In this document: positions 13,061-60,671 of the stretch, in pieces
Position numbering within the stretch: position 1 is the first letter of the stretch
How the letters are laid out: each line of letters begins with the position of its first letter
Origin: Raillietiella orientalis
Taxonomy: Eukaryota
Reading direction: 5' to 3'
NCBI GenBank assembly: GCA_036172245.1
Contig: JAYWIR010000035.1
Coordinates: 930,001 to 994,000, forward strand
DNA: 64,000 bases
Notes under the pieces: model-generated
Told to the model about the DNA's origin: nothing
The model's database searches: none
The model's input: only the letters and a program-made list of their open reading frames with translations
Translations under genes and position numbers: made by a program

Positions 13061-13138
13061 AAAAAAAAGGAAAGAAAGAAAAGAAAAAAAAAAAGAAAAT
13101 ACACAATCAGATTCTTAACAATTATTCATGTTGCTATA

Positions 13139-13149
13139 AATAAAATAAA
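13139..13149 (+). terminator. Overlapping AATAAA polyadenylation signals of UBE2L3
   Basis: AATAAA at 13139-13144 and 13144-13149, about 80 nt after the stop codon. Confidence 0.6.
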
Positions 13150-13418
13150 TTTTGAGGTTTAGTTCTCCAATGTTAAAAAAGCATATTTCTAACTTTAGTT
13201 GCAATTAATACATCAGACAGTTTTTGTATATGGATGCATTTGTTAATGGGAACATCATGTGGTAGTTGAAAACTGATTGTAGAATATATTGATTGATTTA
13301 TAATTATAAGATGTTGTTTTTTTTTCTTAGGAGATTTTATTTAGATATATTCAGAAATACATTAAAAAGACGATGTATATGCTTTTAATTTTAAAATCAT
13401 GACAAATTAAAATTTACA

Positions 13419-16400: not shown

Positions 16401-19400
16401 TTGGTATATTAAGTTTCAAGTGATTCTTTTAATTTCATTCCTTGTGAAGCGTCTGCACATTTTACTTTTGATATCTACTACTTTCCTGAAATTCTTGAAT
16501 TGAGCACTGTGAGTCTTTGGTCTGTGATGTTTAGTTATAATTTCAAAAATGCAGACAAGATGAATGTTATAACATGTTGATGTGTTCTTAGTTCTTAGTG
16601 TAATAAATAATATTAGACCAAAGATTTCATTCGGGACCTAGAATTTGAGGTCATTTACATGATTTGTATGTGAAAATTGGTTGCCATTTCCATTGAATAC
16701 AGAGAATGTCCTTATTGAGCTAATATGATTAGCGATCATTTCGATTTCTGATTAAATTGGTCCCGTAAATAGTGTATGTGATTAATACAATTGGATTGGC
16801 ATGTAACTATTGAATTTATTCATATTTAATTATGATTTTAGCGAAATATTCGAAAATAATTAAGCTCTGCTTTCTTGTTTTACTTTTCCGGGCCTTACAC
16901 ATGAATCTCTTGGGTTGTTTCATTTTGTTTTTTTGCTTGCGAAATCCCTTTTTGTTTTTGTAGTTATCAAAATTGTAATTTTAAACATTTCTGAATGAGG
17001 TGCAAGATTAAGTGCAGACTATTTATGCATTCAGCTCATTCATTTCATAGACTGCTCATTGATTTTTCTCATTGCAGTTTTACAATACAATAGCATAATC
17101 CAAAATAGAAGAGCATAGAATTAGCTTGACTATGAAAGCTAATGGACTATTGCATCAAATGCAAGGAACTTTTTTTCATTTCGTTTTTCACTTCCAAATT
17201 TGATTGTCTCATAAGACATTCATGCATAATCAATCTCAGGATTCATTTAATTTTTTAATTTCTTTTTTTTTTTATAGTGCATCTTGCTTGCATTTTGTTA
17301 CTTGCATTGCATGACTTGTTTCACCTTATGTGCTTTCATTGTATCCATGTTAATTACAATCTTGTGGCACCTAAGTAGAAGTTTCACCTCAGCAACCATA
17401 TTGCTATTGTAGCTTTAGTGAAAATTTGATGCAGTTTCCGATTATAGTTTTGTTTAACCCTGATGCAAATGCAGTTATATTCCTCAAAGGAGGAATTTTT
17501 TCAAGTTTACAGTGCAGTACACAGGTTGCAAATTTCTTGTAATGCAAAGGTCGTAAGAACATATTGGTAATAATGTAGTAAAGCAGATTTCTTATCAGAT
17601 ATTTCACAATAGATATTTTGGGTCTATTTAGTTTCTATTCTGAGTTGTTTTTCTTCGGCTAATGAGTTTACTACATTTGATAATCCATAGAACTAATGCA
17701 TATTTTATTGAGAGAAATTCCACCGGAATTAAGTATCTCATTTCCAAAACATTGAAATTCCGAATGGCTTCTTCCTTTTTTATTCCTTTATAAATAGATA
17801 ATGAAAGATTGCTATTATTACACACTATTGGGAATTAGAAAAATGAGTGCAAAAATTTGAGTTAGTAAACAACGCAGTTTTAATAAGGATCAAAATAATT
17901 AGTCTGTCAGCAAAGTTCATTACTCTAAAGTTCTACTGATTGAAATTCAAGCCTTTTTATTGTAACAGGTTATCAGTTTCAGTAATGGTGTATAATGCAT
18001 GTAGATATGAAATAAAATTTAGAAAAAATATTAATGATTTTAGATTCATCCTATTTTTAGAACAAAAAGGAAAGTGAAATTTGGTTAGGTGTTTGTGCCT
18101 TGGGCTTGAATATTTATGAAAAACCTAACAAGCTGGAACCAAAAGTTACATTTCAATGGCAAGAAATAAAGAACATTAGCTTCAGCAATAAAAAATTCAA
18201 AATCAAAATGGTTGAGAAGAAGAACCCTAGTTTCACCTTTTACTCCAGCAAGGCTAATATGAATCAGCTGGTGTGTAGCCAACCTGCTCAAGATGGATTC
18301 CAAGGGCAGCAATTGGCAGATTCTGGACCTGTGCATTGGCAACCATGACCTGTACATGAGACGAAGAAAACCGGATTTCATTGAAGTGCAACAAATGAAG
18401 GCTCAATCAAAAGAAGAAAATCTGAGGTAAGTTTTCAGAAGTAGCTGATGGAGAGACGCCAGTCTATAGGCGTCAAGCAGAACGTAATAAATTGATAAGG
18501 GAGAAACAGCTTCGAGAAGAACTAGAGCATCAGAAGATGCAATTGGAACAACAGTTATTACAATATCAGACTGAAACACAACTAGCTAAAGAAGCATTGG
18601 TAAGTTTTTTTTGAAGGAAGATCAGCATTTGTAAAAAAATGTTTCTAAGCAAAAGTGTGAGGAAACCGTGGAATTATTGGCAGAAAAGTCTCGAGCTGCT
18701 GAAGAAGAGGCTATGTTATTATCAAAGAAGGCTACCGAAGCAGAAAAAGAGATCCAAAAAATTCGTATTGCAGCGATAAAGGTTAGAACAGTTTGAATAG
18801 TATAGGGTGTGAATTTAATTTAGACAGAAGAAGAAAAGTGGATTCTAGAGAAGAAAACACGGGAAGCTGAACTAGCTGCTGAAAAGCAACGAGTTGAAAA
18901 TCAAATTTTGCAGATGGAATTAGCCAGAGCTCGTATTCTAGAGATGCAAATGAAAGAAAAGTTGGATGAAGTTTTACAAACTCCTTTAAATTCTCCTTTG
19001 GTAAAGAGGTTATAGAAAATCGCTCTGAATTCCACAATACAAACAGATCATGGGATCAGCCTTGAGTGCTAATGAGCATTCCATGCTTAATTCTTGTAAC
19101 CTCATAGACTCAGTGAATCCCAATCTTACTACTCAGTGTTTGGCGAATGACCAGAATTTGCTTGCTTACTCTACCAACAAATCCCATTTCCAACAACAAT
19201 TATGTAATTTAAAATCGGAAATGGACATGTTACAAATCAGTGATAAACAGAATATTCTGGATCAACTTCATGAGGAGCAGCAAGCCAGAGGGGAAAATAA
19301 ATACTCTACACTGAAAAGAGTAAGATATGGAAAAAAGCTAGGTTTTTGATTTCTTGTTCTAGATCAGATCTGGTACCACGAGATCAAGGGTGTCATATTT

Positions 19401-19626: not shown

Positions 19627-21044
19627 ATGACACGAGAAGAAGATGAATTGGATGATGCTCTTCCAGAGGAAGATGCTGCGAAGGGTTTTTATGCCAAATA
19701 TGAACCCAAAGAAATTCTTGGCAGGTTGGTATTTTTCAGATCAAATGTTGTGTTGTAGTTTCTGCTTTCTTCAGAGGAGTGAGCTCCACTGTACGTCGCT
19801 GCATTGAAAAAGAGACTGGACAGGAATTTGCAGCAAAGATTATAGACATTTCAGGTGCTGATGGACAGGATCTGAAAGTGTCCACTCATCGTGAAATCAG
19901 TATTTTACGTATGGTAGCCGGACATCCCTACGTTGTTGAGTTACACGATGTATTTGAGTCTGCCACATACATTTTTTTGGTTTTTGAACTATGCCGCAAT
20001 GGCGAGCTTTTTGATTATTTAACTTCAGTGGTGGCTTTATCCGAAAAAAAAACTAAGTATATCATGAAACAATTGCTGGAAGCTCTGCAGCATGTACATC
20101 AGCAGAACATTGTACATCGGGATGTAAAACCCGAGAATATTCTGTTAGATGACAGTTTTAATGTGAAACTGACTGATTTCGGTTTTGCTCGTCACCTACA
20201 AACAGGGGAGATGCTTTTTGGTGGGTAATTCGCAAAATTACCCAAATTAACATTTTGATTGCAGAGCTTTGTGGAACACCAGGTTATCTGGCTCCAGAGT
20301 TACTCAAATGCAACATGTATGACACTAGTGATGGTTATGGCATGGCAGTTGACATGTAAGTTTAGAGTTTTGAAAGCATCATGGATTCATAAATTCATTT
20401 TAAAGTATGGGGACTGAGTTGAAGATTTACTGTATTGTAGGTGGGCTTGTGGCGTCATTATGTACACCTTATTAGTTGGCTGCCCACCCTTTTGGCATCG
20501 CAAACAAATGGTGATGTTGAGAAATATCATGGAAGGACGCTTCAGTTTTGTCACTCCAGAATGGAGTAGTGTGACTCATTTACCCAAAGATCTTATAACC
20601 AGATTATTGACTGTAGACCCACAGAAGCGGTACACAGTAGAGCAAGCACTAAAGCATCCTTTCTTCCAAGGAATGGTATACAGCATCACACTTCCGCATG
20701 TTTTTCACCTCGTTTGTAGCCAACAACATTCAGAAAACTCAATGCTGTCAGGCTGTTTAAGTTTGCTATCACGTGCATTCGAGCAATGATTCGGATTCAG
20801 CGATTAAAATATACTCCTGAGCCTTTATCTGTCATTAAGTTGAGACTCGACCCCTATAGCTTACGTGCAATTCGCAAAGTAAGGATTTATTTTGTAGACA
20901 CACAAAATTAATTGATTACAGGTCACAGATGCAATAGCGTTTCGTGTATACGGCCACTGGGTGAAGAAAGCCGATGATCAGAACCGTGGAGCACTATTTG
21001 AAAACAGTCCCCGCTGCGAATACCAAACCTCCATTCACCTCTAA
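19627..21044 (+). CDS. PHKG: Phosphorylase kinase catalytic gamma subunit, ~383 aa, 6 exons
   Basis: Exons 19627-19724, 19775-20220, 20265-20355, 20441-20675, 20720-20878, 20922-21044. Motifs: [63 protein letters not shown], and the calmodulin-binding tail [10 protein letters not shown]...[11 protein letters not shown]...QNRGALFEN. Confidence 0.96.
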
Positions 21045-34999: not shown

Positions 35000-36600
35000 A
35001 TCAGAAAGTTCGGAAGATATCTGGGCAGAAGACCTGACGAAAGATTAGGGAGAAAAAATGGGAATCTTAGTGATGTCCTCTCAGCCCTTGTCTTCAATTC
35101 TGTTCAAGCAGACATTGTTTTCCACATTCCTTTCTTCGGTGAATTTTTCCCTCTTTTGAGGCTGCCTCTGGTGCCACTGATATTCCTTTCAAAAGATCCG
35201 TTTTGCTCGTTCCTCCTTTTCTTTAACTGGATGACGGCATACCAGCGCGACCACCGAGAGCAGTTCATGAGGGCAACGGCTCTTTCGCTTACTTTTCCAG
35301 AGCTGGTCCGAAGACACTCCGTAACGTGCTCAAGACTCAGAGCGCTGGCTCGGTGAAAACGGGACCTCGCAATAGAAGACCATGGCAAAAACTCGTTTCC
35401 TCAGTATGGAAGGCAGATTTGAAACTTCCCGTGACCACTCCGCCAATCTGGCGGACTGAAAACTGGAATTGAAGACCCGCCAGCTGAAGGTAGCCCGGCA
35501 GATCTTTTCCACTTCGTTGTTTTTTTCCTTCACGTTCCATACTGCGCTCTTCAGCTTCCTCGTCCTTACCCAGGCAGCCAGAGCTACTTGGTAGCAGAAG
35601 CTCCTCCTTTCCTGGTCAGTCTTCCTTCTTTACAGGCCTTGTGTCGTCATCTTCCGCCATCAGGAGATCCACGACAGATCCCGACTTGAAACCCAGACGA
35701 ATTTGCCCCGCTGTGGGCTCAAAGCCTTCTCCCGCTACTACTCAACCTCCATTCTATCCGATCTTGATCCAGTCTCTCTTCGTCGCCAGCTGGCTTTTCG
35801 AAAATGGAAATCTTGGAGAACCTGCACAATGGAACAGGAGAAGGACAAATACATAAATTGGCTCCCAAACAAAGGAACAAAAAAAATGTAAAATCTATAT
35901 TTGGAATGCCAGATATGATTTTACAAGAAGCCTGGTTTCCAGAGTCTTCTCGCAGGATCGCAGTAGTGGATCCCAAGAGAAGGCAGCAAAAGTATACCTC
36001 GGTCAGCAAAAGACAGCAACTCTTGGATTTCCAAGTGGTGAAGAGGCACCTGCGAGGAGCTCGCGTGTTGAGGGAAGGACCGTCCAAAGGGACTTAGATA
36101 GAGAACGGAAAGTATGACAGGTTCCAGAAAGCGTGCTTGATAAAAAAAGGAAAAGAGCTTCCATCTGCTTCCCCATGAGGATCCTGTGTGCTTTCGAAAA
36201 GGTTTCCTCCGTGCCGATGATAGTCTGGTCTGCTGCTTCTTCGACGATTAGGCGTAAGCAATTAGAGCCATGGGAAAGGCTTGAGAAAAAATGCGCCGAT
36301 CAAATGCGGAGCAAAGGGAGAGGACCCGTGGATTCCTCATAAGAATTGGCAGATTTGGCTCCCAATCTTCTTCGGGTGAAGAATGGTTGGACAAGCAGAG
36401 TGGCTAGGAGTTCAGCAGGGGACTCGAAGCTTACGCTGAAACTGGCGGGGTCAGAACTTCATCTCGCACCATTCGCTAGGAGGAAACGGCTTCGCAATCC
36501 TCGTGGAACCTTGTAAAGAAGTTGCACCGACGCCTACTCTTCTCCATCCATCCTTGCGGGTGCAGTCAGTTTTCCACCTGAAGAAAATCTGGACGAATGT
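35000..36600 (-). mobile_element. Decayed non-LTR retrotransposon RT region (LOA/R1-like)
   Basis: Ordered minus-strand motifs: APARMDG (like KAPGxDG, ~36555), FPPSEW (like FPxxW, ~36475), NS*PLCLSN (like NYRPISLL, ~36400), ALFL-IKHAFWNLSY (like FLDIxGAFDN, ~36155) and GIL (like QGGxLSP, ~35995). Frameshifted. Confidence 0.5.
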
Positions 36601-36680
36601 ATATCCGCTCTTAGAGTCACTTCGTCCTGGGATGATGAACTGAATATAAGGTCTGCTTCTCGGTTGCCATTCTGAAAATG

Positions 36681-36800
36681 TTCCCTTGCCTCCATCTTTC
36701 CTTTCTTCTTTCCTCCCTTCCTCCCTTCTTTCTTTTCTTCCTTCCCTCCTTCCTTCGTTCTTTCCTTCCTTTCTTGATTCCGTACCCCTTCCTCTTTTTA
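36681..36800 (+). repeat. Polypyrimidine (CT-rich, CTTC-like) low-complexity tract
   Basis: About 120 nt almost entirely C/T, lying ~215 nt upstream of the coiled-coil gene's first ATG. Confidence 0.85.
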
Positions 36801-37015
36801 TGTTTCACCGCCTGGGCGGCTCCCGCGCAGTTTCCGTCAGGTCACTCGAACAGCGTCCGTTGCATCCGGCCAGCCTCAATCCCATTGGTCTGCCGCGCGC
36901 AGGAGTGGCTCGTTTCGGCGTTCTTCATTGTTGGGGTGCGCAGGGCCTATTTCGCCGAGCACTTTGTTCGAAACGAGTGCGTGGACTCCGTGCGGTGGAT
37001 ACTCCAAATTCCAGG

Positions 37016-40000
37016 ATGACGTGCATGAGTTCTCAATCTTCCTTCTTGAATCCTGCAGACGTGGCCCGCGGGGACCCGACAGACAACGACGGGATGCGCT
37101 GCTTGCGGAGCCAGCGACAGCAGTTCCAGCAGAAGGTAGGAAGGGAGGAGAGAACTCGCCGCGTCAGCAGAGAGAATCGGGCGGACACGAATCGGCTCCG
37201 TGACAGCTTTCCCTTGGTCGCTCTCCGGAGAATCTACTCTTGTTGTGAGGTCAAGTACAGCTGCTCTTCGGTGCGAAATTGCGAGCGACGCGCCTGTGCT
37301 CTGCTTCGAAGAAGACTTGGGGCAGGCAGATCGAACTGTCTCGATCCACCGTGTGGATGGTCAAGTCGGGGGGCCTCCTGAGAATACAAACCAAATCACC
37401 ACTGCTGGCTTAGAGGATCGAGTCTTAGTAGGTGTCCTGCTTGGACTAATAATCTTGGCCAAAGATCACATATCTGGCGCTCCGCAACGATGAGGTCACT
37501 TGGACGAAAGTGACGCCGTTTGGCGATCACAGAGCGCGGAGCTCAAGGCGATCTCCCCAAAACTGCGAGTTCTTTTTGCCCTCCTTAACGCTTGAGTACG
37601 CGCACCGTTCAAAGTCCATCCTCCTCTTTCTCGGAAAGGTGGAAGGTTCTACTGAGATCGTTCGTCTGTCGGACGAACGCTCCTAACGGGTGCAGTGAGG
37701 GAACCCAGATGTTTATCATTATTATCATTAATGTCCAGCTGGAGGAGAAGTACCGTCGCATCCAGCAGCTGTGCCAGCAGATTGAGGAGGAGCAGGCAGC
37801 CCTTATGCGGGAGAGGATCTTAGCCGAGAAATACGAAGCCGCACTTCTGAAGGCTAACCAGGAGTCGGCCATCGTCAGGGAAGAAGCCATTCAGATGAAC
37901 TCCTACGTTTGTGACATCTCCAAAATGCACACGGAAGCAGAGGACCTCAGGCGGCGAATCGACGAGCTCCAGAAGCAGAAGGAGGAGAGCGAGAGGCTGT
38001 ATGAGGAGACAGAGGAGAAGCGCATCGCCAACGAGAAGGAGCAGTGCCAGATCAGGAAAGAGATCGAGGAGATAGTCTCCCTCAACGAGCAACTCCTGCG
38101 GGAGATGGAGCAGTCCAAGTACGAGGTGCGAATTGAGGGTCTCCTGGGGGCACTGCATCTGTCAGCATCTACGGTGCATGCACCCTTGATGTTGGGCGGC
38201 GGTGATGATGATTGAGGTAGAAGAGCCAGAGCGGAGGAAAGTCTCCAAGACACCGCATCCAGCTTCCTTCCATTACTGATGGCTGTACTGATGGTGCTTT
38301 TTTTCCTTTGCGCGCTATCCATTTCTCTCTCTCCTTTTATTCCCAAGCGGCTTCGCTCGTCTCCGTTAGTTACGGCAGGTCGAAAGGAGGCAGGGAGCCT
38401 ATTAGGAAGAGAGGAAGCAGGGAAGGAGGGAGCGTCCATGCTTGCATGCTTGTCGCTGCAAAACCAGGAAGAGATCAAAATTACAGCGAGGTCTGCTTGT
38501 TGATCTTCTCTAGTCTCTTGGAATGCCATAGCCTGAACCGCATCACGAGCCTCGAGCGGCCGAAAGTCCTTTGTAGGCGGAGAGTAATGATGGAATGATA
38601 GTAACGAGGAGGGGTGGGTATCTCAGGAATAGGCGAACGACGAGGAGAGTTCCAACAAGCTTCAAAGCTCTTTCCATACCCCGGATTTTCGAAAGATGTC
38701 TATAGCGAGTCACGCCTTCGGAAAGAAGCTCTGCTTCTAACAGAAAGCGAAACCGTCCTCTTCCACAGACCCTTCTCAAGGAGCAGTGGCATACCTTGAG
38801 ACTTACCGGATCCTACTCTCCTTTCGCTTTCTTCCCGCTTTTCTCCATCTGCATTCGGAGGACACCTGTGGAGATGAAGGGTGCGCCTTACGTGCGGAGA
38901 TTGTTCGCTCTCTCGACGCTTTTCTTTCTTGTTTTTTTCTTTCACTTTAGCCGTCAATGGGTCTAAGGTTGACTGATAGCTCTGCTTCATCTTTTATGGA
39001 CTCCACTTCCTATGTTTTTTTTATATTTCGATCCCATAGAAGGATCCCATAGTTGGACTCGGAGAGAGGATCGGTGTCATGGAGGACTCTATATCATTAC
39101 CATGAAGGAAAGGTTGGGAGGGAGGGAGGGAGAACGAGTCTCACCGAAAAAAGTCTTGATTCCCTCCTGCAGGTTGAGGAGCTGGGAAAGGAAACCGCCT
39201 CCCTCCAGTGCGAACTGGAGGCGAAGGACGCGGAACTGCAGCGCCAGCAAGGTAGAACTGAAGATATCGGCAAGGAAAGAGATGCTATCGACCGAGACCT
39301 CGAGCGAACCCGAGATTCTCTCAAGGAGATGCAGGATAAGCTCCGAGAGACCAAAGCTGCCATCGAGGACCTCCAGGAACAGTGCAAGGCGGAAACCACC
39401 CGTAGCAACGACCTCAGGAACCTGCGGGATCGCAAGCAGTTGGAGCTCGAGCAGCTCTTGTGTACCAAGAAGCAGGAGCTGGAACAATGCAAGCAGAAGA
39501 CCCATCATACCGAACGCGAGCTTGAGAAGATCAAGGAAGAGGTGAGATGAGGTCCGGGAGGAAACGATGCGGTGGAGGAGAAGGATGGAGAGAGGGTGGG
39601 AGCGAAACGAGCAGGCGGACGTGCCACGATGTCCCACAGCCGCGGATAGGTTCCCTTCTGGAAGTCTTCCCACATCTTCGAAGGGTAAGGGGGCAAGGAA
39701 GAGAAAGGCTATCAGGAGAATGAGAACGGAAGGTAACAGGGAAAGAAGAAGAGCAGCGGTGGTAAGAAAAGAAAATTTGATTTCTTCCTGCTCGATTAAG
39801 ACTGCCTGCATTCTCCCGATGCATCGTACGGTATTCTGATTTGGAAAGAGTGAGTACGCTCGTGAGGTGAAGGCAGCACCCTCCTCCGAGACCCGGAATG
39901 AGACAGCAGCAGCGAAGGCTGCGCCTATGTGCATTCTCGAGTTCTCTCTCCTTTCCTCTCCTCCAGAGAAATTGACCGGCCATACGAGCGTCTGTGCGTT

Positions 40001-43000
40001 CCAGAACTGTGAGAAGGAAAAACAGGTGCAGAGCGAGGAGGCCGAGGCTTCGAGAAAGTGCGAAGAGCTGAATGAGCTGCGGGCCTCCAACGAGCGCCTG
40101 GAGAGGGAGTGTGCCAAAGCCACGGAGGAGGCGGAACAGAGCAGGGTCGTCCTGAGCACATGCGAAGGCGAGGCGAAAAAGCTGGAAGAGCAGATTGAGG
40201 AGCTGACCAGGGAGATCCGAGAGTCTGAGGGCGAGATCTTCCGATCGAGAGAAGAGCTCGACGGTCTCAGGACGCTCAACGTTGCGTCGCTCACGCAAAT
40301 GCAGGCGGAGCTGGAGAGGCAGCAGGAATCCAAGAAGCAACTGCAGGAGGAAGCGAACTCGCTCTCCAAGAAGGTGAGGCGGGGACCAACTGGCGTGTAG
40401 GACTCCCTCGAGGCATCCCCTTCTATCCTTTCACACGAGGCGCCAGACTTTCGCGTCGTCTCCCCAAAATATTCAAAAGCAGCTGTGACTCCGCTTTCCT
40501 CCTCGCTAGCGTACGCGTGTGAGAGCGAGCAGTCAATGAAGGGGTTTTTTCCTCAAGCACTCAGCGCTGAGATGAGTCATAGCTACGAGCTTCCACACTC
40601 CTGTCTGGGATTTCGCTCTCGCTGTTGGCGGGGACTCTGGGAGCGCAGTTGTGCAAAACTACTGGAAGTTTCCGCGGGAGTAAGTTTGCAGAGAAAAGGA
40701 AAAGAGAATTTCCGGGAAAGTGAAGCAGGAGCGGCACCGCCACCACTCTGTCCTTCTATTCTTTTCCTGTCCTTTTCATTCGGAGGGTAAGGAAGGAGGG
40801 AACGCGTTTCTTTCCAGGTGGTGAATCCATCTGCCTTCTGGGAAAGGATCTTCGGTATTTAATTCGACGATATTTTTGTCACGGTAGAGGAGGGAAGGGT
40901 TCAAGAAGGACATACCTGTGGTAAAGAGACACCTAAAAGACGAAGAAGTTGGAAAGAAGACATCGGATGCGGGATGATATAGTGAAAGGAAGACACGAAC
41001 ACTCATGTCTTCCCTTCCCTTTGCTTCGTGCTTTCTCATCGGGATGGGAGAGTGTCGATCTCATCCCGGGTGATAGAGGAATTGCAAACGTTGGACGAAA
41101 CCAGCGGGGTTTGCTGGAGTTCTATGGGCGTCTGAGCAATGACTACTGCTCTTGTGTCTTCACCTTAAGAACTCCTCCGCATCCTGCCGGTAGTGTCACA
41201 AGAACAGTTTCCTTTTGCTCCTTTCTCCTGCCGAAATTCGATCCTTCTTAGGCTAAGATGCCTTTCAAGTGCTGCGCATCTAGATTTCTCGCCCTTCCCC
41301 TGGGTCTACTTTCCGATTCCTGCATTTGCTTTTCTTTCGTTTCCTTCTTTTCTTTCCCCGATGCGTGGTCACTGACGGGAGAGGATATGTATTAAGGAGA
41401 ATGGGGAGAAGGTGTATCGGCAGCGTCTTGGGTGCAGAGATTCGTATGGGAGACTCCTGGTCGTCGATTGCTTTCCGTAGGGTCACCAGAACGGAATCGA
41501 GGGACCAGCTGGCAGGGAAAGGCATAACAGGGATGGGAGGAAAGGTGATAGTTGATTCCCAGAGGTGAGAGAAGGTGCAACTGCTCCTTGTCTGCTGAGT
41601 TATTGTGGACCTCCTAGATGCCCACTGTAGACCCTCTCGCTGCATTGCGCATTCTCTTTATCTTTCCTGGCAAGAGTCGGAAAAAGTCACCTGGACACTT
41701 CCGCATTCCACAATCCTTTGCCCTTTGGCAATCCCTGTACTTCAGACTCGAGGGAGATCTCATGCCGCCGTCTCATCCTTTCCCTGGCCACTCTTGCACT
41801 TGCTTACATCCCTTTCCAGATCCAGGACTACGAGCAGAACTTCCAGCAGCTGCACAAGGAAGTAGAGCAGAAAAGCAAGGCCTTAAGAGAGGAAGAGCTC
41901 AGGGAGAAGAAAGTGAAAGAGGACATGGACAGACTGCTAATGGAGGAGGCGCAGCTGAAGGCGAGCGTCGAGAAGCTGCGCCAGGAGCTTGAGAAGCCAT
42001 CTGCAGATCTGGACCACCTGAACAGAGAAATCGTCCGCATCGAGAAGGAAAATCTCCAGGCGTCCGCAGAACAGAAGGAGCTGGAAGCCGAGCTGGAGAA
42101 GGTCAGGCGTGAGTCCGAGGCCATCAAGAGTCAGGCCAAGGGGCAAATGAAGGAAGAAAAGCAGAAGAACACGGCTTTAGAGAAGAGGATCGAAGAGGTT
42201 TCTAAGAAGGTAAGAAAGGGAAAGGCGTCTTCTTTCCTCCTCTTTCCACATACCTTTTTTCTCGAAACTGCCAAAAAATAGAAAGAAACGGGGGGATCTC
42301 TTGGATGCCCCTGTCCTGTGGTTTTGCTAGAGCCACCTCAGGGCAGCAGTTGCTGCTGTTAGGGACGCGAAACGCGTTCTAAGTCCGAACTCGGAGTCGT
42401 CTCTTACAGCTCAACGACATCGAGGGTGAGTTGTCCACAAAGGAGACCTCTGTCCAGACACTTCGTGAGGAGCTGTCCCGTTCCCAAACGAGACTTAGAG
42501 AACGACACAAGGAGTGCGAGTTGGTCCGCTGCGACGTGGATGCGTGCAGCCGTGATATGGAGCTGGTCGAAAACGAGAGATCTAGGGCACAGCAGCAGTT
42601 CGACCTACGAACGAAGGAGCTAGAGGAGGAGGAGACAAAGCTCTCTGAGCTCCTAAAGAAAGAGGAGCATTTGAAGACTTCTGCAGAGAACGAGAGGCAG
42701 GAGAGTGCCGCCGAGAAGGCCGAGGCGGAGAAGGCCCTTCGGGTCGAGACGGAGAAGAGGATGCAAATGGAGAAGAACCTCGCCTCCCTGAAGTCGAAGG
42801 TACGCTGGTCGGTCGGCTCCCGAAAAGAAGATGCCGCGGTTTGCGCGAGTCGGGCGGCGGCGGAAGCAATCGGTGCACTCCGTCATCAGTGACTGACGAT
42901 CCCATCCGAGTCGGTCAATCCTGACTCCCCGCCCTCATTTCTGCGCTGCGAAAAAGAAGAAAAAAGGGAGGTACCGGAGGTAGCTGCAGAGGAACAGCAC

Positions 43001-44220
43001 CATGGAGGTTGTTCTTCTTCGAACGAGCATCATGGAAGCTCTTTCGCACGTTTCACAGGGATAGGGATGCTCTTGACATGGAGACGGAAGGGAGGCAGGA
43101 CGGCTGCTCCCAAGTTTGCGAGCGTAACACTGTCGCCTCGAGAAAACAAGAAAAACAGAGGAAATGGATGCTGAATCGTCGATGATGAGCATGTCAGAGG
43201 GGGAAAGTCTTCGTGCCTCCCTCCTCTGCTTTCTCCCTTTCCTCTTGCATTTGGAAGCAGCTCGCTCCTGGTGCGTTCGAACGACGATGGGACGAAGCCA
43301 CCGCTACAGCTCGTCTTATACTCTGGAAGATGCACTCTATTTTTCTCCGCAACAGGAAAGAGGAGTTCACATTCCTCCTTGTTTGCTCGTTAAAATTCGA
43401 AACCAGCCTGCCTCTTCCCCATAACCCACGCAGGAGCACAAACCTCTGCGTCCTGCTTCCCACATCTCGTCCCGACATTCCCTGAAGGAACACAAGCTCT
43501 CCCACTCTTACCGTCAAAAAGAGATCAGGAAACGCAGAGACAGCTCTGTTGTTGTTGCTTTTTTCTCCCTGTGCGCGTATATCGATCTTCATCTTCATCA
43601 TTTTGGGGGATGACGTAACCAGCTCTGTAGCGGATGAGCCTGCAGAGCCGTGCAACTTTCGTAAATTATTGAGATAGAATCGTTTGTTGCCACCTACGCA
43701 GCGCATGATGAATTCTTGGTCCCAGGATGCCTTTTTCTGCTGGCTTTCTTTCCGGCTTCCTTTGTTTCTTCTTGCTTCTGGTGAAGTCTTGCTCTCCGTA
43801 TCGGGATGGATGGGTGACGGCCACACTGGTGCTCTCTGAAAAGCCATCTTTTTGAGGTAGCGAATCGTTGCTAGAACGTAGAAGAACAACACTTTGTTTG
43901 CTTGCTTGCTTGCTTGTCCCTTCTAGAGGCTGCAACTCTGGACTCAGGTAGAAGAGCCACTTTTGGCTCTTGAGCGCCATCAACGCGATCACCATTGTTT
44001 TTTCCACGCTGCATAATGAGCTATCGGGCAAAAGGCGATTTAAGCGCTTTCGAGGTCTTAGTCGAAATCCTCCACTAAGGTTGCCACTTTCCAGATCCAG
44101 GAAGAGTTCAGCGCACAGCTGAACACAGAGGTGAGCAAGGTCACGAGTCTGCACCACGAGCTGAGCAGCGTGCAGACGGCCTTGGAGAATGTCGCCGACC
44201 AAGTTTGTAACAAGTGCTAA
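37016..44220 (+). CDS. Unrecognised long coiled-coil protein, ~716 aa, 7 exons built from repeated phase-0 modules
   Basis: Exons 37016-37135 (least certain), 37739-38125, 39173-39541, 40005-40373, 41820-42209, 42410-42799, 44095-44220. All are GT-AG, phase 0 and free of internal stops. The sequence is E/K/Q/R/L-rich heptad pattern with high GC3. AATAAA occurs at 44410 and 44476. Confidence 0.8.
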
Positions 44221-44835
44221 CCTCTCTTGCCTTTTTCTCGTTCCTCATCGACTTATCCCGTTTCTGCGTGTCTCCCGGGTTATCGTCGTTCCGCTCCGCA
44301 AACCTCGACCCTGGAAGACTGGCTGCACTTTCTCGAAACAGCGCCCCTCCCACCCTCCAAGTGTGCCGTGCGAGTGCTGCTGGTCCTAACAAGAAGAGGA
44401 AACCCCAGAAATAAAGATCCTCATCAGCACAACAGCCTCTCAAGGAATCAGTTGATCCGGAGGATCACTTGGTGAAATAAAATTCCAAGGAAATTGAGTT
44501 TGCAGTTCGCACTTTCTGGCGTATCTAAAATGATCCCTTCCGGCACTCTTCGTTCAGCATCCAACTCTTGATCCGTTTCGCGTCAGCGTTCAGTTCTAGA
44601 TTCGTTGGACGTGTATGTTCCTCAGACGAAGATGCAAAGGACAGAAAGGAGCAAAAATTGAATTTTTCGAATTCTTCCAATTTCTGGAACTCAAAGGCCG
44701 GTGCAGGTCACCGTGACAGGAGTGTACTCTTTTTTATTGTCGCTGTTGTTATCATTTTTCCTTTACTCTTTCTCTCTTCCTGATCCGTGATGTGGATCTC
44801 ATCGGCATCTTCAATCGATGGTCGGAATTGGTAGG

Positions 44836-44858
44836 ACACTAGTCAGTGTGACTAGTGT
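44836..44858. repeat. Perfect 10-bp hairpin followed by (TTTA)n
   Basis: ACACTAGTCA-GTG-TGACTAGTGT, then TTTATTTATTTATTT at ~44862-44876. Confidence 0.8.
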
Positions 44859-45499
44859 AGGTTTATTTATTTATTTAATTAATTTAAAAAATAAAAAGCC
44901 CCGGCGCAGCCAGGTGACAATCCTCTCCCCAAAACAAGGGGAGGTGACACCAAAGTATTAAAAGTAAAAGGCCAAAAAGAAGGTGGTGGGTCTTGCCGCA
45001 GAGGAAACCATCGCGAGACCTCGGATTCCGAGCTGGAGTCGGAAAACCCAAGCATCAACGCAGTCGAAACCAGCGAGAAGGAGCACATCCTCGTAGGAAA
45101 GGGCTGTACTCGCCGAGGAAGGCGAAAGCATGCAGATGGATTCCCGAGAATCACCGACAGAGAGGATGCTCCGATCCGGACAAAGAACCGGGGTTACAGA
45201 AGGAAAAGAGTAAGAAATGTCCACTTGCCACCGACTCGCCTCCCGCTTCACTACCAATTGGGAGCCGACTCGCCCTCTTCCCTCCGAGTACCCGCTTCAT
45301 GCCATCGAATATGTCAACGGACTGCGAGACGACAGCAAGAGACGGGACGTAGCCACTACCTCCCCTATCCTTATATCTGATGCTCCTTCAAGAGATCCGC
45401 GAGATCTCAGCAGAGAACGTTCGGAGATCGAGAGGATCGCGTATGGGAAGCTGTGTTAGCATTGCGGCTCCGTAAGCTCATGTGGAGCTGCCTTCCTGC

Positions 45500-48400
45500 T
45501 AAAGCCAGTCGTAGAAAACCCGATGTGGGACGTTTCGACGAGGGAGGACAACTTGTGGTCAAGTGGCCCGAATCGATCCACCTCATGGTCACAGACATTG
45601 CGCTTCAGCTTCTGTGGGACTAAAACTCGGCCCTTCGATGCGAGATGCAGGAGTGAGGAGAACGCACCTGATTGCAGGAGATTCCAACATCCCTCTGCTC
45701 TCAGGTGCGGCCAGCTCAACCTACTCAACGAATTGTGCGCAGCTACTCTTGCGTGCAAGTTGTAGTCCAGTGTAGCCGGGATGGAAAGAAGTGCCTCTCA
45801 CATCTTCTTCGACGACCACCCTCGCGGGTCTGTCATCCTGGAAGGGGATGCGAACGATCCTTTCGGACCATGGCCGGATTGAGCTGGAAGTGCTTCCAAG
45901 CTGGAAGCGGTCTCCCTCCCAACTCGTGGCCTCTGACAGAAGACGGACTTTACATGGGGGAAGTGGAGGAACAGTTCGGTGAATTCCTGCGGTGTGTGAC
46001 CGTGCAGCAGCTCAAAGAGAGGGACGAGACGAAGCGCCCGATCTGGGAGCTGTGCAGAAACTTTTCAATGGACCGACTTCCATCCAGTTTCTGCGAGGGA
46101 ATGAAAAAAGAGAGCACTGTCTTGCAGGCTTGTCCTGTAGAGGTAAGGACAGACACATGTCGTCTGGTTGAGGTTCTAGCCGGTTCTGAGCGTCAAGTCT
46201 GGCAGTCCAGCTTGCTGGACGACCTGGACCAGGAACGCTCTTCTCTGGTGGAGGTTGAGTGCACAGCACCGTGCGCAATTTCTACCGTCTGGAGCAAGTG
46301 TAGCCCCGGACTTGTAGTGGACGCGGTGCAAAGGAGAACTTCCTGCACCTGTTTTCGAGTGCTCTGTTCTCCAGAGTGTTAGGGAATGTTCGGATGCGTC
46401 CCTGGACTCACCCAGCCTGACAACGCGAGAAGCACGTTGAGAGGCCTCATCACTCGCTGCGGAGCTTCGCCTGCGGCGAGCGTCCGCAGCTCTGTGCTGT
46501 TGCTTACGCGTTGTCGCGGTGGCAGAAAGCTGCGATGATGACGGAGGCCACACGACCAGAGACGCCGCCCCGTTGAGGATGACCAAGGGATGATCACATT
46601 TCTCTCGGAACAAGGAGGGACTTGCCGGCATCCTGCAAAGGATGCAGAGGACTCCGGGGAGTGCACTGGGATCCCTTCTCTCGTCCCTCTCACCTCTTTG
46701 AAACCCTTTTTTTCATGACCGTCGTAGAGAGATAGTTTTTGTCGTTTCTGTTTATCTCCAATCTCTTTCCTTGTGAGTTCATCTCATGAAAAGCTGCACG
46801 CGAACAGCACAGCCTCCATTGATATATGGATGTGGAGAGATGACAGGTACGGAAAATGGACTTTCTATGACTGTTTTTTTGTGAACATCTAAAAATCTAC
46901 ATTCAAAAATTTGAATTTTTTTTTTTTACAATAAATGCCCCGTCATGACCGGGTGAAAATACTTCTTCCTCCAATCGCCTCCAAAGTGCTCATCATGTTC
47001 ATCCTACATCTGGTACGCCCAAAACTAGGACTCTAGTCTCCTTTTAAGCATTCCATGGTCAAGAATTCTTCCGAGTTTGTAAAGATTTTAGGCAATTACA
47101 GACTTGCAGCTACAAGAGCTGGGAGAGTTGTCACCCAGTTACGCGGGGACGTTCATTGTAAAAAAAAAAAAAAAGAGTACATGCTTATAAACTGCCATGC
47201 AAAAAAAAAGAAAAGAGCCATTCTTCCGTAGTGGGTTTGTTATTCCATTACGTCGGTAAGGGAGTCCTGGAAGCAACTCTTGCTCTCGAGCACATTGTCT
47301 TGAGTGATCTGCACAGGAAAAACAAGGTGGGAGGGAGTAAAGAGGAGCGGAAGGAGTATGCTTTCTCGAGTGCAGCATCATTACACTCAGGAAGCCGTCG
47401 TACTTAACTGGGATGAGGGACTTTGAGACTCTTTGTTCCTCGCGTGAAGCCTTCGTGTGGAACGACTGCCAAGCCAGAGAGAGAGAGTAATATGGAAATT
47501 GCTATCTATGGAAGAAGGAACTGGAGGAAAAAAATTGCCGCAGGATGCGCAAGAGTCAGGCAAGCGAGAAAAGTAAGACTTGTTCCATCTCGTCTCTCAT
47601 AGCATAAAGGGGAGATGGACAAATCATTTGGCCTCATTGCACGCAGAAGCATCCGGAAAACGGGAGCGATAAGATTCAGGTATGTATGGAAATGCGATCG
47701 GCTGCCTGCAGTCGATGTCTCTAGTGACAGACCTGATTCTACAAAAAGGGATTTGGCCCGTTCTCCCAATTACGGACCCAGGTCGTGCCTGTCTGTGAGT
47801 TATCTGATGTGCAATCGTGATTCATCTTCTCCAGCGAAAAGGTCGCGAGAAATTTGACTAAAAAGTGCGTGCACAGACCGGTGGTAGAAGAATAGACGGC
47901 GTTTCCATCAATATTCGTGATCTTTGACTTGAGATTCAGAAGAAATACCACCGAAGACCACCAGATGGTAGATTCATTTGAAGTCGAATGGGAAATCATA
48001 GAAGCACTGAGTATTGGGTAGTCAACGTGGGCGGAACACACACGCATCGTTTTGTGCTAATAGGCCATTTTCCTCGGAATACTTAAGTGTCATTCCGTCA
48101 TTGTAGTGCGCCGGGGAGTACCAGGTATCTCCCTGTTCCGTTCTCTGTGCCATACAGCGATTTGTAAGGCATTCTGTAGCAAATCCAGGAGGAGGCATAT
48201 CCGAACAGCACCCTAACACCACATGAAAGAAGCGTCACTCTCATGTCGCTCCTTTCACGTGCCATCCATTGGCAACATAACACTTTCCTCTCCTTTTCAC
48301 GATTCTGGAACGGATCAATTGAGCAGGAAAAGTCTTGGATGTGGGAAGATGGGAGCTCGTTTTCTCGAATGCTCCATGTACGACCGAGCCTTCTAAGGTT

Positions 48401-49210
48401 GCAGAAGGCGAAACAGTAGAAGATTGCAGGGAGAAAGCGAAAGAGATACAAAAAGGACAATTCCCCATTGAGAGGTTGAGGATACCAAGGCTGAATCCTA
48501 TTCATGTAAGGACGCACTCTTACTGCGCTTCATATGGACAACAAGAGTCATCAGAGAAAACAAATAGTGCCTATAGAAGATTCGGACGGTTGATTTTGAG
48601 AAAATTTCCAGTGGAAATCAACTGGTGACATTAAAAAGCCAAAATTACAACCGACTGCGTAAGGAAAGCGATCTGATAAGACATCTGATCTGATCCAGGA
48701 AGGATGAGGAAATAGTTTTACAAAGATGTGGAAAAGAGGGAGCAGGACATGGACCATTATATCTACTGAGATGGGCACCCTGAATGCTTCCACAATAGGG
48801 ACAGGAAATCTTCAAACGAATGTAACAGATCCATACGTCAGATTTGGGAAACTTGATGCCAGGGTGCCTGTTGCCGAAGGGACAGATTCTGCGTCCATCT
48901 TCCCTCAGAAGCACTAAGAGACTTCTGGAGAAGGCGATCCATTGAAGCTAGAAAGGCGTTCGATCGTGTTCCCAAAGCAGTCCTGGAGGATACTCTGATC
49001 AATGCTCGTCTTCAGCTGCTTATCCTGATATCGAGGAGCATTTCTTTAGCTTCCCGAGATTATTCTTCTCTCCTAGAGTCTCCATTATTTGTTCGGGTCT
49101 TTCTTGCTTGTCCTTCGCATGCTTCTTAAAAAACCATCTACCTGGTGGGCTGCTTTGCAACGGTTCATCTCAGGAATATCCTGCTGTATTTTCAAACAAT
49201 AAATCTTCCA
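45500..49210 (+). mobile_element. Decayed CR1/L2-like LINE (APE endonuclease + RT)
   Basis: Ordered motifs: HLIAGDSNIP (like GDFN, ~45670), ILSDHGRIELEV (SDH, ~45860), TKRDLARSPNYGPRSCLS (like KKGDxxxPxNYRPISLLS, ~47750), GVP (~48115) and NSFTKM (like RRFTKM, ~48715). AATAAA at ~49198. Multiple frameshifts. Confidence 0.55.
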
Positions 49211-49556
49211 TGCATTTATTTAGATAAGCACAAGTAACACAGGAGTTTTCCTGAGCTCTTCGGATGAGAGGCTGGCTCGACTCCAGCATGAGAGAAGTTG
49301 AAGACGATTCAGTTGAATGTGAGTTTCGATCTCAGAGTTTGGGAAGAGTTTAGATGGAGAATGTGCATGTGGGAAACTGCGACAGGCGATACACCTTCTG
49401 TCTTCTGGAATGCTGACGCATCTCACATTTCGGCAAGTCCTTCCATCCCAAATCATCGCTATTTCCCAAAAAGGTGAGCAGATCTTCTTGTGCGTCTGTG
49501 CTTGACTTCTTCCAGAAACGGAATCGAACTGTGTGATCCTTGTTTTACTTTTGTAA

Positions 49557-50501
49557 TTACAGAGACAGCTTGGAAACCATCAGTTGGAACGAATTTTCCA
49601 AGTCCATTATTTCCTTCCTGAGAGTTTTCATTTCTGACAGAACCTTTTGCACGGTGTCCTCTTTATTCTGAAAGACAAAGCGCACGGTTGATAACAGATG
49701 TGTTGGAAGTTCCTCCCCCCTTCCCCCCCCCCCACACACACACACATCCTTTCCTCCTCCCCCGACTTAGTTCGGAAGTTCGCCTCAGATATGCATCGCT
49801 TCGGTGATAACATCGTTCACCTGAAACTCGCGTCACTGAGTGTCACGTACACACGACAGTAATTACGTACGCTGTCAATGACATTTTGAGTAGTCGTCAG
49901 GGTACATGTCGTATTCAGTGTCGTGTTCGCGAAAAAGAATTTTCGATCAAAAAATAAAAGGAAAAGGAAAAGCGCGAGCTGTCTCGGTTTCGCAATCGAA
50001 AACAACCATTTTACGTCCTGAGTGACAATGTTAGCGAATTGCTGTCGTTTTCTCAGGCCCGCGGCCAGAGGTGATACTAGAGGAATATCAAAACGAGAAT
50101 ACAACCTCTCTTCCATCCCTCCAGCAGAATTCAGGAGGGCGTCTGTTTTGGAACTTTGACAGTGATAACGAGGATTCAACTGGCGTAATTAATTTGGGGC
50201 ACTCGTTCGAAGTTGTCCTTGGAGCTTGCAGTTCTTCCGAGAATCGAGACACGAGCACTCGACCTTCTTCGGTTCCGAAAAGCTTGTGGATGGTTCTCTC
50301 CAGGTTCCTGTAGAGATCTTTCAGCCTAGCCTCCGCGCTTTCCCTTTCTATGAGGTACTGAACAAACTGCGGGGGCATCGAGGTATCCCCTTCCGAAATA
50401 GATGAATGCACGAGGTGATTCTTGAAAGTTTCGTATTGTCTGATCCTTGGCACGAATTCCAGAATTTGCTCATACAATCTCAAAAGGATCTCTTCCATTT
50501 C
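49557..50501 (-). CDS. Candidate orphan gene exons (unknown product)
   Basis: Exon-like 50501-50106 (acceptor CTCCCTGTTTAG, donor GAG|GTTGTA, 132 codons, EMEEILLRLYEQILEF...) and 49667-49557 (acceptor CTTTGTCTTTCAG, NKEDTVQKVLSEMKTLRKEIMDLENSFQLMVSKLSL*). They join in phase 0. Confidence 0.45.
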
Positions 50502-51333
50502 CTAAACAGGGAGACGGATATACATACATGCACATATATTTTCTCGCTGTCGTTTCGGCTATAGTGATTTTTTAGCTTTCAGAGAACAACGCTACGAGAT
50601 GTTTGGTCATCCTACTTCATCCACCGAGTGGAAGAAAAAGAAAAAAAAAGAACAGAGTTTTGCTTCTGGAATCATGCGAAATGCCAGTAGGCAAGAAGTT
50701 CTCTGCTGCCAGTTCGAACTGCAGAGAGGAATGCTTGCACTCTTTCAATGAAAATGGAACTTTTGGAACGTGCGTTTCGCGATAGGTGTTTCCATGTGTA
50801 GACGGAACATGCGAGTTTCTATGGAGGTTCCGTCTCTTGAATGAAATCGCCTGCACCGTTGGCAGGCATCGGCGCTTTGGAATGGGGCAGTTTCCCGAAC
50901 GGTTGCCCAGACGAAAAATTACAAGAATCCCTCTCGATTCTCAGAAAGCGTATTTGAGAGCTTCTCGTTACTCCGAAACGCACCCACTCAAGGATCATGG
51001 AGACTTTCTCCTCTAAGGTGAGGACTTGAACACGTTCCCATTCAAGACGTTCCTGAAATGAGGCTACTGCAAGCACCGGGAAGGTGGCATCATTTACGAA
51101 ATAAATGCTGTAATAACATTTCCAAGATAGATAGATAGATTATCAACTGCCAGAAGTATTGTAGCCATGTAATTTATCTGTGTATCTCACAGGTCGTTTG
51201 TTCGCGAATAGTTGGACACCTGGCTCTGATGCCTCGTGGGCTCTGGCTCACAATCAGTGCTTGAATACCCCGTTTATTGTAGTCCGAAGCTGCGGATGTT
51301 TTAGTTTGAATAGCATCCGAAAAACATTTGAAT

Positions 51334-51374
51334 ATCACAATGGAACAAAGTGTGAAACTTTGTTCCAATGTGAT
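51334..51374. repeat. 18-bp stem hairpin (one mismatch), 5-nt loop
   Basis: ATCACAATGGAACAAAGT-GTGAA-ACTTTGTTCCAATGTGAT. Confidence 0.85.
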
Positions 51375-51413
51375 CCTAGAAATCCGACAATTAATGCTGC
51401 TGGAGTCCATCAC

Positions 51414-51803
51414 CTGTTCTGAGGCCGGCCTCTCCAAAGTGGACTCTGCTTGTTCAGAATTTGCTTTTCCTTCAGCATTGCCAGCGAGTGTTTTCTGGAA
51501 TCATCACACGTTAGTCATATTAATAGAAAGCTGCTGTACACCGGCTCTGTCCTTCTTCGTGTCCACTGTCACATGCTTCCTACTCCCCGATTGGTGGAAG
51601 GATTTGCTTACCGCAGTTTTGTCGTCAAGCAAAGATTTCTTGCTGTTGTTTTCTTTAGTTCCAGCTCGTTGAGCAGTCGACGATTCCTCGACGCAACCTT
51701 GGCAAAGAGTTCTCACAAACAAACACACAGATAAGAATGCCACGAATAAAGTTCCCAGAATGACGGCTATCAAGGAAAATTCATTCATAGCCAGGAAGTT
51801 CAT
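51414..51803 (-). CDS. Candidate single-pass membrane protein, first two exons (3' part unresolved)
   Basis: 51803-51540 encodes MNFLAMNEFSLIAVILGTLFVAFLSVCLFV (hydrophobic helix) and a polar tail. A 45-nt GT-AG intron (51539-51495) contains a GACTAAC branch-site match. The in-frame exon 51494-51414 ends CAG|GTGATG. Confidence 0.45.
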
Positions 51804-56719: not shown

Positions 56720-57274
56720 ATGGCTTCGGACGACGGTGGTGTCTATCATGAAAAACAAGTGAGACAGTTCTGTGCTCTTCATTCGTTGAATAATCTTTTC
56801 CAAAAACAGAATACGTTTAAAAAGGAAGATTTGGATTATCTTTGTCAACAACTTCATCCCCAAAAGCTCTTTAATCCCCACTGCTCGCTATTTGGTTGGG
56901 GAAATTATGATGTTAACGTTGTTATTGCTGCCTTGAACCAAAAAGGATATGACATGATTTGGTTTGATAAACGAAAAAATGTTGATGTGTTGTGTTTCCA
57001 GAATATATTTGGCATAATTGCAAATACACCTGCAGAGCTAAATTTGAGGTTTTTCACCCTTTCGAATCCATTGTCAAGAAGACACTGGATAGCCGTTAGA
57101 CAAATAAACAATGTGTACTATAATTTGGACTCCAAACTTAAAACACCCGAAATCATAGGGAGTGAAGCACAAATTATTGTATTTATTAAAAGTTTGCTTT
57201 CAAAGAATGGTGAAATCTTTCTTGTTGTTGAGCATAGTGTGTTTACTAAAGAATTATGGAAAAAAAACACTTGA
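56720..57274 (+). CDS. JOSD: Josephin-domain deubiquitinase (JOSD1/2-like), 184 aa, intronless CDS
   Basis: YHEKQVRQFCALHSLNNLFQ (catalytic Cys), NPH...GNYDVNVVIAAL, WFDKR, and RRHWIAVRQINNVYYNLDSKL (catalytic His and Asp). An acceptor-like TCTGTTTCATAG ends at 56702. Confidence 0.95.
   Translation: MASDDGGVYHEKQVRQFCALHSLNNLFQKQNTFKKEDLDYLCQQLHPQKLFNPHCSLFGWGNYDVNVVIAALNQKGYDMIWFDKRKNVDVLCFQNIFGIIANTPAELNLRFFTLSNPLSRRHWIAVRQINNVYYNLDSKLKTPEIIGSEAQIIVFIKSLLSKNGEIFLVVEHSVFTKELWKKNT

Positions 57275-57950: not shown

Positions 57951-60671
<2,721 letters not shown>

Follow-up and report, generated by a model that had tools for sequence, protein, structure and literature searches.

The window analysed here, 64,000 nucleotides (nt) from Raillietiella orientalis (GenBank assembly GCA_036172245.1, contig JAYWIR010000035.1, positions 930,001 to 994,000 of the forward strand; all positions below count from its first letter), raises the question of what is encoded by a seven-exon gene on the plus strand at 37016-44220 and how its central exons of almost equal length came about. 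A preceding interpretation made without database searches (in the following, the sequence-only reading) had described an all-helical heptad protein of about 716 amino acids (aa) lacking a recognisable family and built from tandemly duplicated exon modules. Based on translation, register decoding, structure modelling and searches for relatives, the locus probably represents an intact gene for a lineage-restricted, strongly acidic fibrous coiled-coil rod protein whose modules arose by tandem exon duplication.

Translation of the seven stretches reproduced the exon model of the sequence-only reading exactly, with 40+129+123+123+130+130+41 codons adding up to 716 aa, followed by the stop codon TAA at 44218-44220 (exon positions are given in Table 1). 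All six introns are bounded by GT..AG, lie in phase 0 and measure 603, 1047, 463, 1446, 200 and 1295 nt, respectively (5054 nt in total). The G+C content at third codon positions (GC3) amounts to 0.71-0.81 in each of the seven exons compared to a GC content of 0.50-0.54 in the introns, which supports the reading frames. Furthermore, the start codon of exon 1 features an A at position -3. Less favourable for the model is a second in-frame ATG at 36800, located 216 nt upstream of the modelled start, and the splice pattern as well as the start codon are predictions. Judged from its sequence, we take the coiled-coil gene to be real and intact. On the opposite strand, a Ser/Leu-rich open frame of 487 codons (39089-40552) runs antisense to exons 3 and 4 and crosses intron 3; that it stays open throughout this 463-nt intron is mildly surprising. 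We attribute this frame to the GC-ending Glu, Lys, Gln and Leu codons of the sense strand, of which it would be a side effect, and do not regard it as a gene.

Concerning composition, Glu accounts for 20% of the 716-aa protein, the next commonest residues being L, K, Q and R; the protein carries a net charge of -43 and contains 3 Pro, 10 Gly and 18 Cys. Its hydrophobic residues recur with a period of 3.5 (scaled power 16.5 compared to 8.6 for the 95th percentile of shuffle maxima), and a continuous heptad register interrupted by six breaks was decodable from approximately residue 14 to residue 716. AlphaFold2 modelling in single-sequence mode covered two of the seven exons and returned one uninterrupted helix for each of them, comprising residues 2-128 of exon 2 (predicted local distance difference test, pLDDT, 97.2) and residues 2-122 of exon 4 (pLDDT 97.5). 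Taken as a whole, the protein is a nearly continuous heptad helix. Hydrophobic period, helix models and the family searches described below agree with the all-helical, family-less heptad protein envisaged by the sequence-only reading. As for charged residues, acidic, basic and net-charge spectra showed no peak at period 28 or 9.33, meaning that a myosin-type repeat was not seen, and no charge periodicity at module length, the top charge peaks (10.45 and 6.85) being at or below shuffle maxima.

In order to place the introns relative to the heptads, a seven-state register decoder (Viterbi) was applied with three jump penalties, all of which led to the same outcome. Exons 1-6 end at heptad position g and exons 2-7 begin at position a, so all six introns are located between g and a. 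Exactly one register break occurs in each of the central exons 2-6, in agreement with a sliding-window phase scan, and the +3 break in exon 2 and the +4 stutters in exons 3-6 equal the non-multiple of 7 in each exon length. The symmetric, register-preserving central modules proposed previously were thereby recovered, decoding as 17-18 heptads plus a 4-residue stutter. Assuming uniform intron placement, five internal exons of 123-130 codons would be obtained with P ~1.5e-6, and the common g/a register of the exon junctions corresponds to P ~6e-5, i.e., (1/7)^5. All six exons preceding an intron end in AAG or GAG; only one of the six downstream exons starts with G, and for this reason the g/a placement is not explained by the splice consensus. 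The exon architecture is far from random. A full-text literature search, evaluated at the level of titles and abstract openings, yielded no account of a gene whose introns all occupy the same heptad position while each exon carries a single stutter.

Whether this architecture originates from duplication was evaluated at the residue level. The shared residues listed by the sequence-only reading are all present in the translations, namely Leu at position 22 of exons 2-6, EEL(20-22) and EC(35-36) in exons 4 and 6, L11, E14, E16, K18, R28 and D37 in exons 3 and 5, QQL(9-11) in exons 2 and 5, and the four module ends ELEKIKEE, EANSLSKK, RIEEVSKK and NLASLKSK as quoted. Under heptad-block permutation, Leu22 in all five modules has P = 0.12, which identifies it as a register effect at chance level, and columns with at least four of five identical residues are likewise at chance level (2 observed, 2.33 expected). 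Ungapped alignment from the splice site gives 6-23 identities per exon pair. For the six pairs among exons 3-6, the BLOSUM sum is 327 compared to 155 +/- 42 (z = 4.1) under a null model keeping the hydrophobic pattern, and in heptad-block permutation of the same exons z equals 2.4 when the first 70 residues are compared, 3.1 when the comparison extends over the first 119, and 4.2 over the final 49 residues anchored at the exon end. Moreover, tblastn without composition correction produced collinear alignments of 20-23% identity for the exon pairs 2-5, 4-6 and 5-6.

Several results weigh against a common descent of the modules. With composition-based statistics, tblastn detected no exon-exon match at E <= 10, and self-comparison revealed no DNA similarity between the modules or their introns apart from a 16-mer discussed below. 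Single exon pairs reach z values of 0.3-1.8 under the heptad-block null in the 70- and 119-residue tests, none being individually significant, and exon 2, when aligned at offset 0, shows no similarity to the other exons (z = -2.1 to -2.4 versus exon 6). In the autocorrelation, which peaks at multiples of 7, lag 116 is on a par with lags 123 and 130, and most of the in-register signal therefore reflects heptad phase and not descent. The proposed tandem duplication is thus weakly supported, by exon length, phase, register and stutter position and not by sequence, where composition-corrected matches are missing and z values of 2.4-4.2 emerge only in aggregate. Except for this aggregate excess, similarity between the exons is close to that of unrelated coiled coils, a level which the sequence-only reading itself had considered incompatible with duplication.

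These observations would also fit modules that are analogous and not homologous, in which case a long coil gained or kept introns only at equivalent g/a sites and the regular stutters represent a mechanical need. The missing inter-exon similarity in composition-corrected BLAST, the equal score of lag 116, and the chance level of Leu22 and of the four-of-five identical columns favour such an origin, and the AAG or GAG ends of six exons match the exon side of the AG/GT splice consensus. However, proto-splice-site bias does not explain the g/a position given a single G among six downstream exon starts, and two adjacent pairs of equal length (123/123 and 130/130 codons) contribute to an overall regularity with P ~1.5e-6. 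In addition, the stutter falls on position 95-96 in three of the four +4 modules, the exon ends resemble each other ([LV]SKK or LKSK), and the last 49 residues yield z = 4.2. An origin without duplication is therefore regarded as unlikely. Ancient tandem exon duplication is the best reading, as deduced from exon length, phase, register, stutter position and the similar exon ends, and faintly from the residues themselves. According to this reading, one exon of about 17.5 heptads would have been duplicated in tandem, and later divergence would have left hardly any residue similarity and no DNA similarity.

The 16-mer mentioned above had been listed among the observations of the sequence-only reading. 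As claimed, the 64-kb window contains exactly two copies, at 41812 and 44087, each extending over an acceptor, and none was found on the reverse strand of the window. It is composed of CTTTCCAG + ATCCAGGA, that is, 8 nt of acceptor consensus followed by codons for I-Q-D/E; on the plus strand of the GC-rich island surrounding the gene, CTTTCCAG occurs three times and ATCCAGGA twice. Neither copy is flanked by similar sequence, and the blastn E value is 0.068 in a 9-kb self-comparison. As a duplication trace, the 16-mer is suggestive, not decisive. The related proposal that exon 7 is an internally deleted module was not borne out, since the Smith-Waterman comparison of exons 5 and 7 gives z = 0.36 and no protein similarity beyond I-Q-D/E was apparent. 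Likewise, a tblastn search of the introns and of the remaining window for cryptic or decayed modules gave no match.

The two adjacent pairs of equal exons also allow a different view of the mature protein, according to which exons 3/4 and 5/6 are mutually exclusive duplicated pairs and the product measures about 463 aa and not 716 aa. Mutually exclusive duplicated exons occur in arthropod myosin heavy chain genes. Within each pair, the exons are adjacent and identical in length (369 and 390 nt, respectively) and phase, pairs 3-4 and 5-6 belong to the three most similar ones (22 and 23 identities, z ~3 versus simple shuffles), and either choice would keep frame and register. However, inclusion of both exons keeps the frame as well, so exclusivity is not enforced, and introns 3 and 5 are not sterically limiting with 463 and 200 nt. 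Docking/selector complementarity was not observed either, the longest reverse-complement matches being low-complexity stretches of 10-11 nt near expectation, and approximately 18% identity is low for interchangeable exons. Mutually exclusive use of these exons is hence considered highly improbable.

Relatives of the protein were searched exon by exon and not with the spliced protein, and the large protein libraries were searched with exons 2 and 5 only. By means of hmmscan, no Pfam family above cutoff was found in any of the seven exons; the best match below cutoff was DivIC with 21.3 bits compared to a cutoff of 28.9. Exon 2 obtained 0 matches at E <= 1e-3 in an exhaustive phmmer search of 1.84 billion representatives, the word-indexed search among longer proteins with exon 5 yielded 0 of 2969 word-sharing candidates scored, and 0 of 276 pattern matches of exon 6 in metagenomes were confirmed by tblastn. 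In comparison with the PDB, exons 3, 4 and 6 matched only generic coiled coils such as GCN4, lamin or tropomyosin, with E values of 0.035 or higher. A language-model look-up of exon 4 retrieved coiled coils of CFAP58, ERC/CAST, GOLGA2, HOOK and liprin proteins with scores of 0.89-0.94, several unrelated families being matched at once with 96-117 of 256 features in common; true family members usually share at least 170 of 256. None of these families was matched by hmmscan. This likeness is one of class, not of family. The protein has no detectable relatives in these searches and, as part of the joint reading given at the outset, is probably lineage-restricted. Counting against that reading, the missing homologues are weak evidence of real orphan status, because only exons 2 and 5 entered the large libraries and because the flanking host genes are without close relatives there, too (55% identity at most for the Josephin gene).

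Comparison with known coiled-coil systems places the protein among long heptad rods without assigning it to any of them. Like the myosin II rod and paramyosin, it would represent a very long, acidic, two-stranded heptad rod (two-stranded by prediction in the present case) with register breaks at regular long intervals. Skip residues of the myosin rod occur roughly every 196-197 aa. In contrast, the breaks found here are +4 stutters every 123-130 aa and not +1 skips, a motor head is missing, the 28- or 28/3-residue charge periodicity is not present, and none of the seven exons matched Myosin_tail_1 in Pfam at E <= 1. Tropomyosin forms an unbroken coiled coil with quasi-repeats thought to originate from internal duplication, and its gene features alternative exons. 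However, its period is about 40 aa compared to about 125 aa here, no Pfam match was obtained, and the only PDB match had E = 0.31 (exon 6). Spectrin and nesprin rods consist of tandem helical modules of about 100-130 aa commonly attributed to duplication. Spectrin repeats are three-helix bundles of about 106 aa each, whereas exons 2 and 4 were modelled as single straight helices, and spectrin-like matches of exon 3 remained below cutoff (Spectrin_Anc-1, E = 0.28, 11.9 bits versus 33.2; SYNE3, E = 0.22, 12.5 versus 30).

Regarding ciliary and filament proteins, CCDC39/CCDC40 is reportedly a long coiled coil whose length sets the axonemal spacing of approximately 96 nm. With a predicted rod of 94-100 nm, the likeness is in length only; no sequence relation was detected, exon 2 having 0 matches in 1.84 billion proteins and no ciliary coiled-coil Pfam family lying above cutoff. 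For CFAP58 (PF21771, CFAP58_CC), hmmscan gave no match at E <= 1, and the language-model lead of 0.94 was accompanied by 111-116 of 256 common features. Similarly, no Pfam Filament match to the intermediate filament/lamin rod was obtained, and the best PDB match, to lamin A/C, had E = 0.2 and involved exon 4 alone. Altogether, the gene is one more lineage-specific long coiled-coil protein gene of an ordinary kind; what is unusual are its register-locked exons and its foreign-looking setting.

Based on these results, a head of 26 aa would precede an almost uninterrupted alpha-helix of about 690 residues, the hydrophobic ones among them following the heptad pattern. Two such chains would probably associate in parallel as a homodimer to form a coiled-coil rod of about 95-100 nm; the two-copy complex prediction of exon 5, run without controls, scored 0.10 compared to a mark of 0.32 and gives no verdict either way. 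With a helix rise of 0.1485 nm per residue, 635-676 helical residues correspond to a rod of roughly 94-100 nm, and the rod length and step sizes given in the sequence-only reading follow arithmetically from this value. The stutters recur every 123-130 residues, equivalent to approximately 18-19 nm along the rod, and would locally loosen the supercoil. A structural role as scaffold or tether may be assumed, for which the Cys-bearing ends would be available for attachment or cross-linking; the short head and the Cys-containing tail (C-N-K-C) would act as attachment sites. Two of the 18 Cys residues are located within the last four residues of the protein; those of exon 4 occupy positions 2, 19, 36 and 53 with an even spacing of 17 residues, and those of exon 6 positions 36, 41 and 46. 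Prenylation of the C-terminal CNKC was considered and set aside, the middle residues not being aliphatic.

Every central exon is in phase 0 and extends from a to g, and consequently gain or loss of an exon disturbs neither reading frame nor heptad register. Omission or duplication of any module would be neutral in both respects, is mechanically possible, and together with the rod length of about 94-100 nm calculated above it had led to the idea of a molecular ruler, in which the rod determines a spacing inside a larger assembly and its length is adjusted by increments of approximately 18-19 nm through exon skipping or copy number. This idea is opposed by the charge spectra, which offer neither a periodicity at module length nor the 28-residue type driving staggered assembly. 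Furthermore, the introns and the rest of the window are free of cryptic or decayed modules, and no relatives with other module counts turned up in the searches. A ruler function is accordingly a very remote prospect, and a structural rod with modules derived from duplication remains the favoured reading.

The coiled-coil gene is embedded in a GC-rich island (Table 1) with a GC content of 0.49-0.58 compared to 0.29-0.42 in the flanks. Dinucleotide distances between non-coding island DNA (8639 nt) and four flank blocks are 149-209, those between flanks 29-70; the differences concern TpA (0.48 in the island versus 0.68), GpA/TpC (1.34 versus 1.07) and CpA/TpG (0.94 versus 1.19). At approximately 35.0 kb and 46.7 kb, the log-likelihood ratio of a third-order Markov model switches over within about 300 bp, and stretches outside the range used for training behave like the island core. 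GC3 of the coding sequence is 0.76 compared to 0.33-0.35 in three flanking genes, and codon choice is reversed relative to these genes for E, K, Q, D and N (Fisher p 1e-3 to 3e-8). The flanking genes themselves are informative regarding the host. The main exon of the phosphorylase-kinase gamma gene shares 70-78% identity with most of the matches listed, nearly all of them from arthropods (including Daphnia, crickets, ostracods and barnacles). For the Josephin gene, the best matches reach 47-55% identity and originate from many animal phyla, the top-scoring one belonging to a fish-assembly record that is marked as contamination. Judging by these genes, the host appears arthropod-like and poorly represented in protein libraries.

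Table 1. Positions of the coiled-coil gene, its surroundings and neighbouring genes within the 64,000-nt window.
Feature	Position	Strand	Remarks
(TTCC)n / 32-nt polypyrimidine microsatellite	36682..36775		Tandem Repeats Finder and sequence; ~240 nt upstream of start codon
Exon 1	37016..37135	+	40 codons; predicted non-helical head of ~26 aa, followed by heptads sharing the register of exon 2; GC3 0.78
Exon 2	37739..38125	+	129 codons (7x18+3); heptad a to g; one +3 register break near position 60
Exon 3	39173..39541	+	123 codons (7x17+4), 369 nt; a to g; +4 stutter at position 96
Exon 4	40005..40373	+	123 codons, 369 nt; a to g; +4 stutter at position 90-95
Exon 5	41820..42209	+	130 codons (7x18+4), 390 nt; a to g; +4 stutter at position 109
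Exon 6	42410..42799	+	130 codons, 390 nt; a to g; +4 stutter at position 95
Exon 7	44095..44220	+	41 codons and TAA; tail ends C-N-K-C; GC3 0.79
16-mer copy	41812..41827	+	Across acceptor of exon 5
16-mer copy, second and only other	44087..44102	+	Across acceptor of exon 7
Two AATAAA hexamers, candidate poly(A) signals	44410 and 44476 (44410..44481)	+	190 and 256 nt past stop
Island core holding the coiled-coil gene	35000..46700		52% GC, 11.7 kb; dinucleotide signature far from flanks; both edges sharper than ~300 bp
Shoulder of intermediate composition	46701..51800 (to ~52 kb)		GC 44-48% (0.41-0.48 up to ~52 kb), Markov log-likelihood ratio ~0
Candidate first exon of second island gene	45871..46143	+	ACCATGG start, 91 codons, GAG/GTAAGG donor, locally high GC3; no Pfam family, downstream exons not located
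Phosphorylase-kinase gamma gene, complete	19639-21030	+	Pfam name; ~380 aa in 1.4 kb, very short introns
Josephin gene, single-exon	56720-57271	+	Pfam name; 184 aa
Kinase exon	58851-59378	-	Pfam; read as PKN-like from sequence

The distinct composition raises the possibility that the island is foreign by descent, either as a recent insert from a GC-richer eukaryote with introns or as a contaminant joined by the assembler, in which case the gene would be real and reflect the biology of another organism. In addition to the shifts in GC content, dinucleotide distance, GC3 and codon choice and the sharp Markov flips at both core edges, the 5054 nt of introns in the coiled-coil gene compared to the compact phosphorylase-kinase gamma gene are in line with this explanation, and so is the combination of arthropod-like flanking genes with a coiled-coil gene that has no matches. 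On the other hand, the searches for relatives pointed to no donor. No target-site duplications or terminal repeats beyond chance were found at the island edges, and no transposase, reverse transcriptase or viral domain was detected in 92 of the 115 open reading frames (ORFs) that reach 75 aa or more in the interval from 33.5 to 53 kb, the 23 left out overlapping the coil exons. For a chimera, the assembler would have had to make two false joins, and there is no N in the window. Moreover, the right-hand shoulder of 5 kb fits a regional gradient as well as an insertion, the flanks themselves vary between 29 and 42% GC, and a GC3 well above local GC is also expected from GC-biased gene conversion in a native island. 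A foreign descent of the island is thus a tentative possibility, and the data do not discriminate between recent acquisition from a different eukaryote, a chimera created during assembly and a GC-rich island native to this genome. Interspersed repeats common to island and flanks were not found; none are shared from flank to flank either, so this result is uninformative. Rfam returned 0 families for the whole window. An apicomplexan donor, prompted by a composition reminiscent of coccidian genomes, was rejected, as no result points there.

Further features were noted within and beside the island. At its edge to the shoulder, a 256-bp foldback (46916-47171) comprises arms of 44 nt with 80% complementarity, with a T-run at its start and an A-run at its end, and may represent a small inverted-repeat element. 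In the shoulder, an ORF on the minus strand (50091-50501; 137 codons) is protein-like with mild codon-position asymmetry and has no Pfam family. In the language-model look-up it came closest to fungal DUF7708 clusters, which stayed below the recognition mark and provide a weak lead only. The most AT-rich part of the window is located at 8000-18000, where 10 kb have a GC content of 29-30% and a dinucleotide distance of 61-70 from the other flanks.

In its most far-reaching form, the setting would mean that an arthropod genome recently took up a block of at least 12 kb from a GC-rich eukaryote with long introns intact, the cargo being a family-less rod of register-locked cassettes of about 18.5 nm whose length is changeable one cassette at a time by splicing or copy number. 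This combination is judged quite unlikely. If the join were false, the island would flag a contaminated or chimeric contig; if it is genuine and the block is missing from related species, the island would represent a rare eukaryote-to-animal transfer of an intron-bearing gene. Concerning the gene itself, introns placed at one heptad position together with one stutter per exon would make it a natural system for changing the length of a rod in fixed steps.

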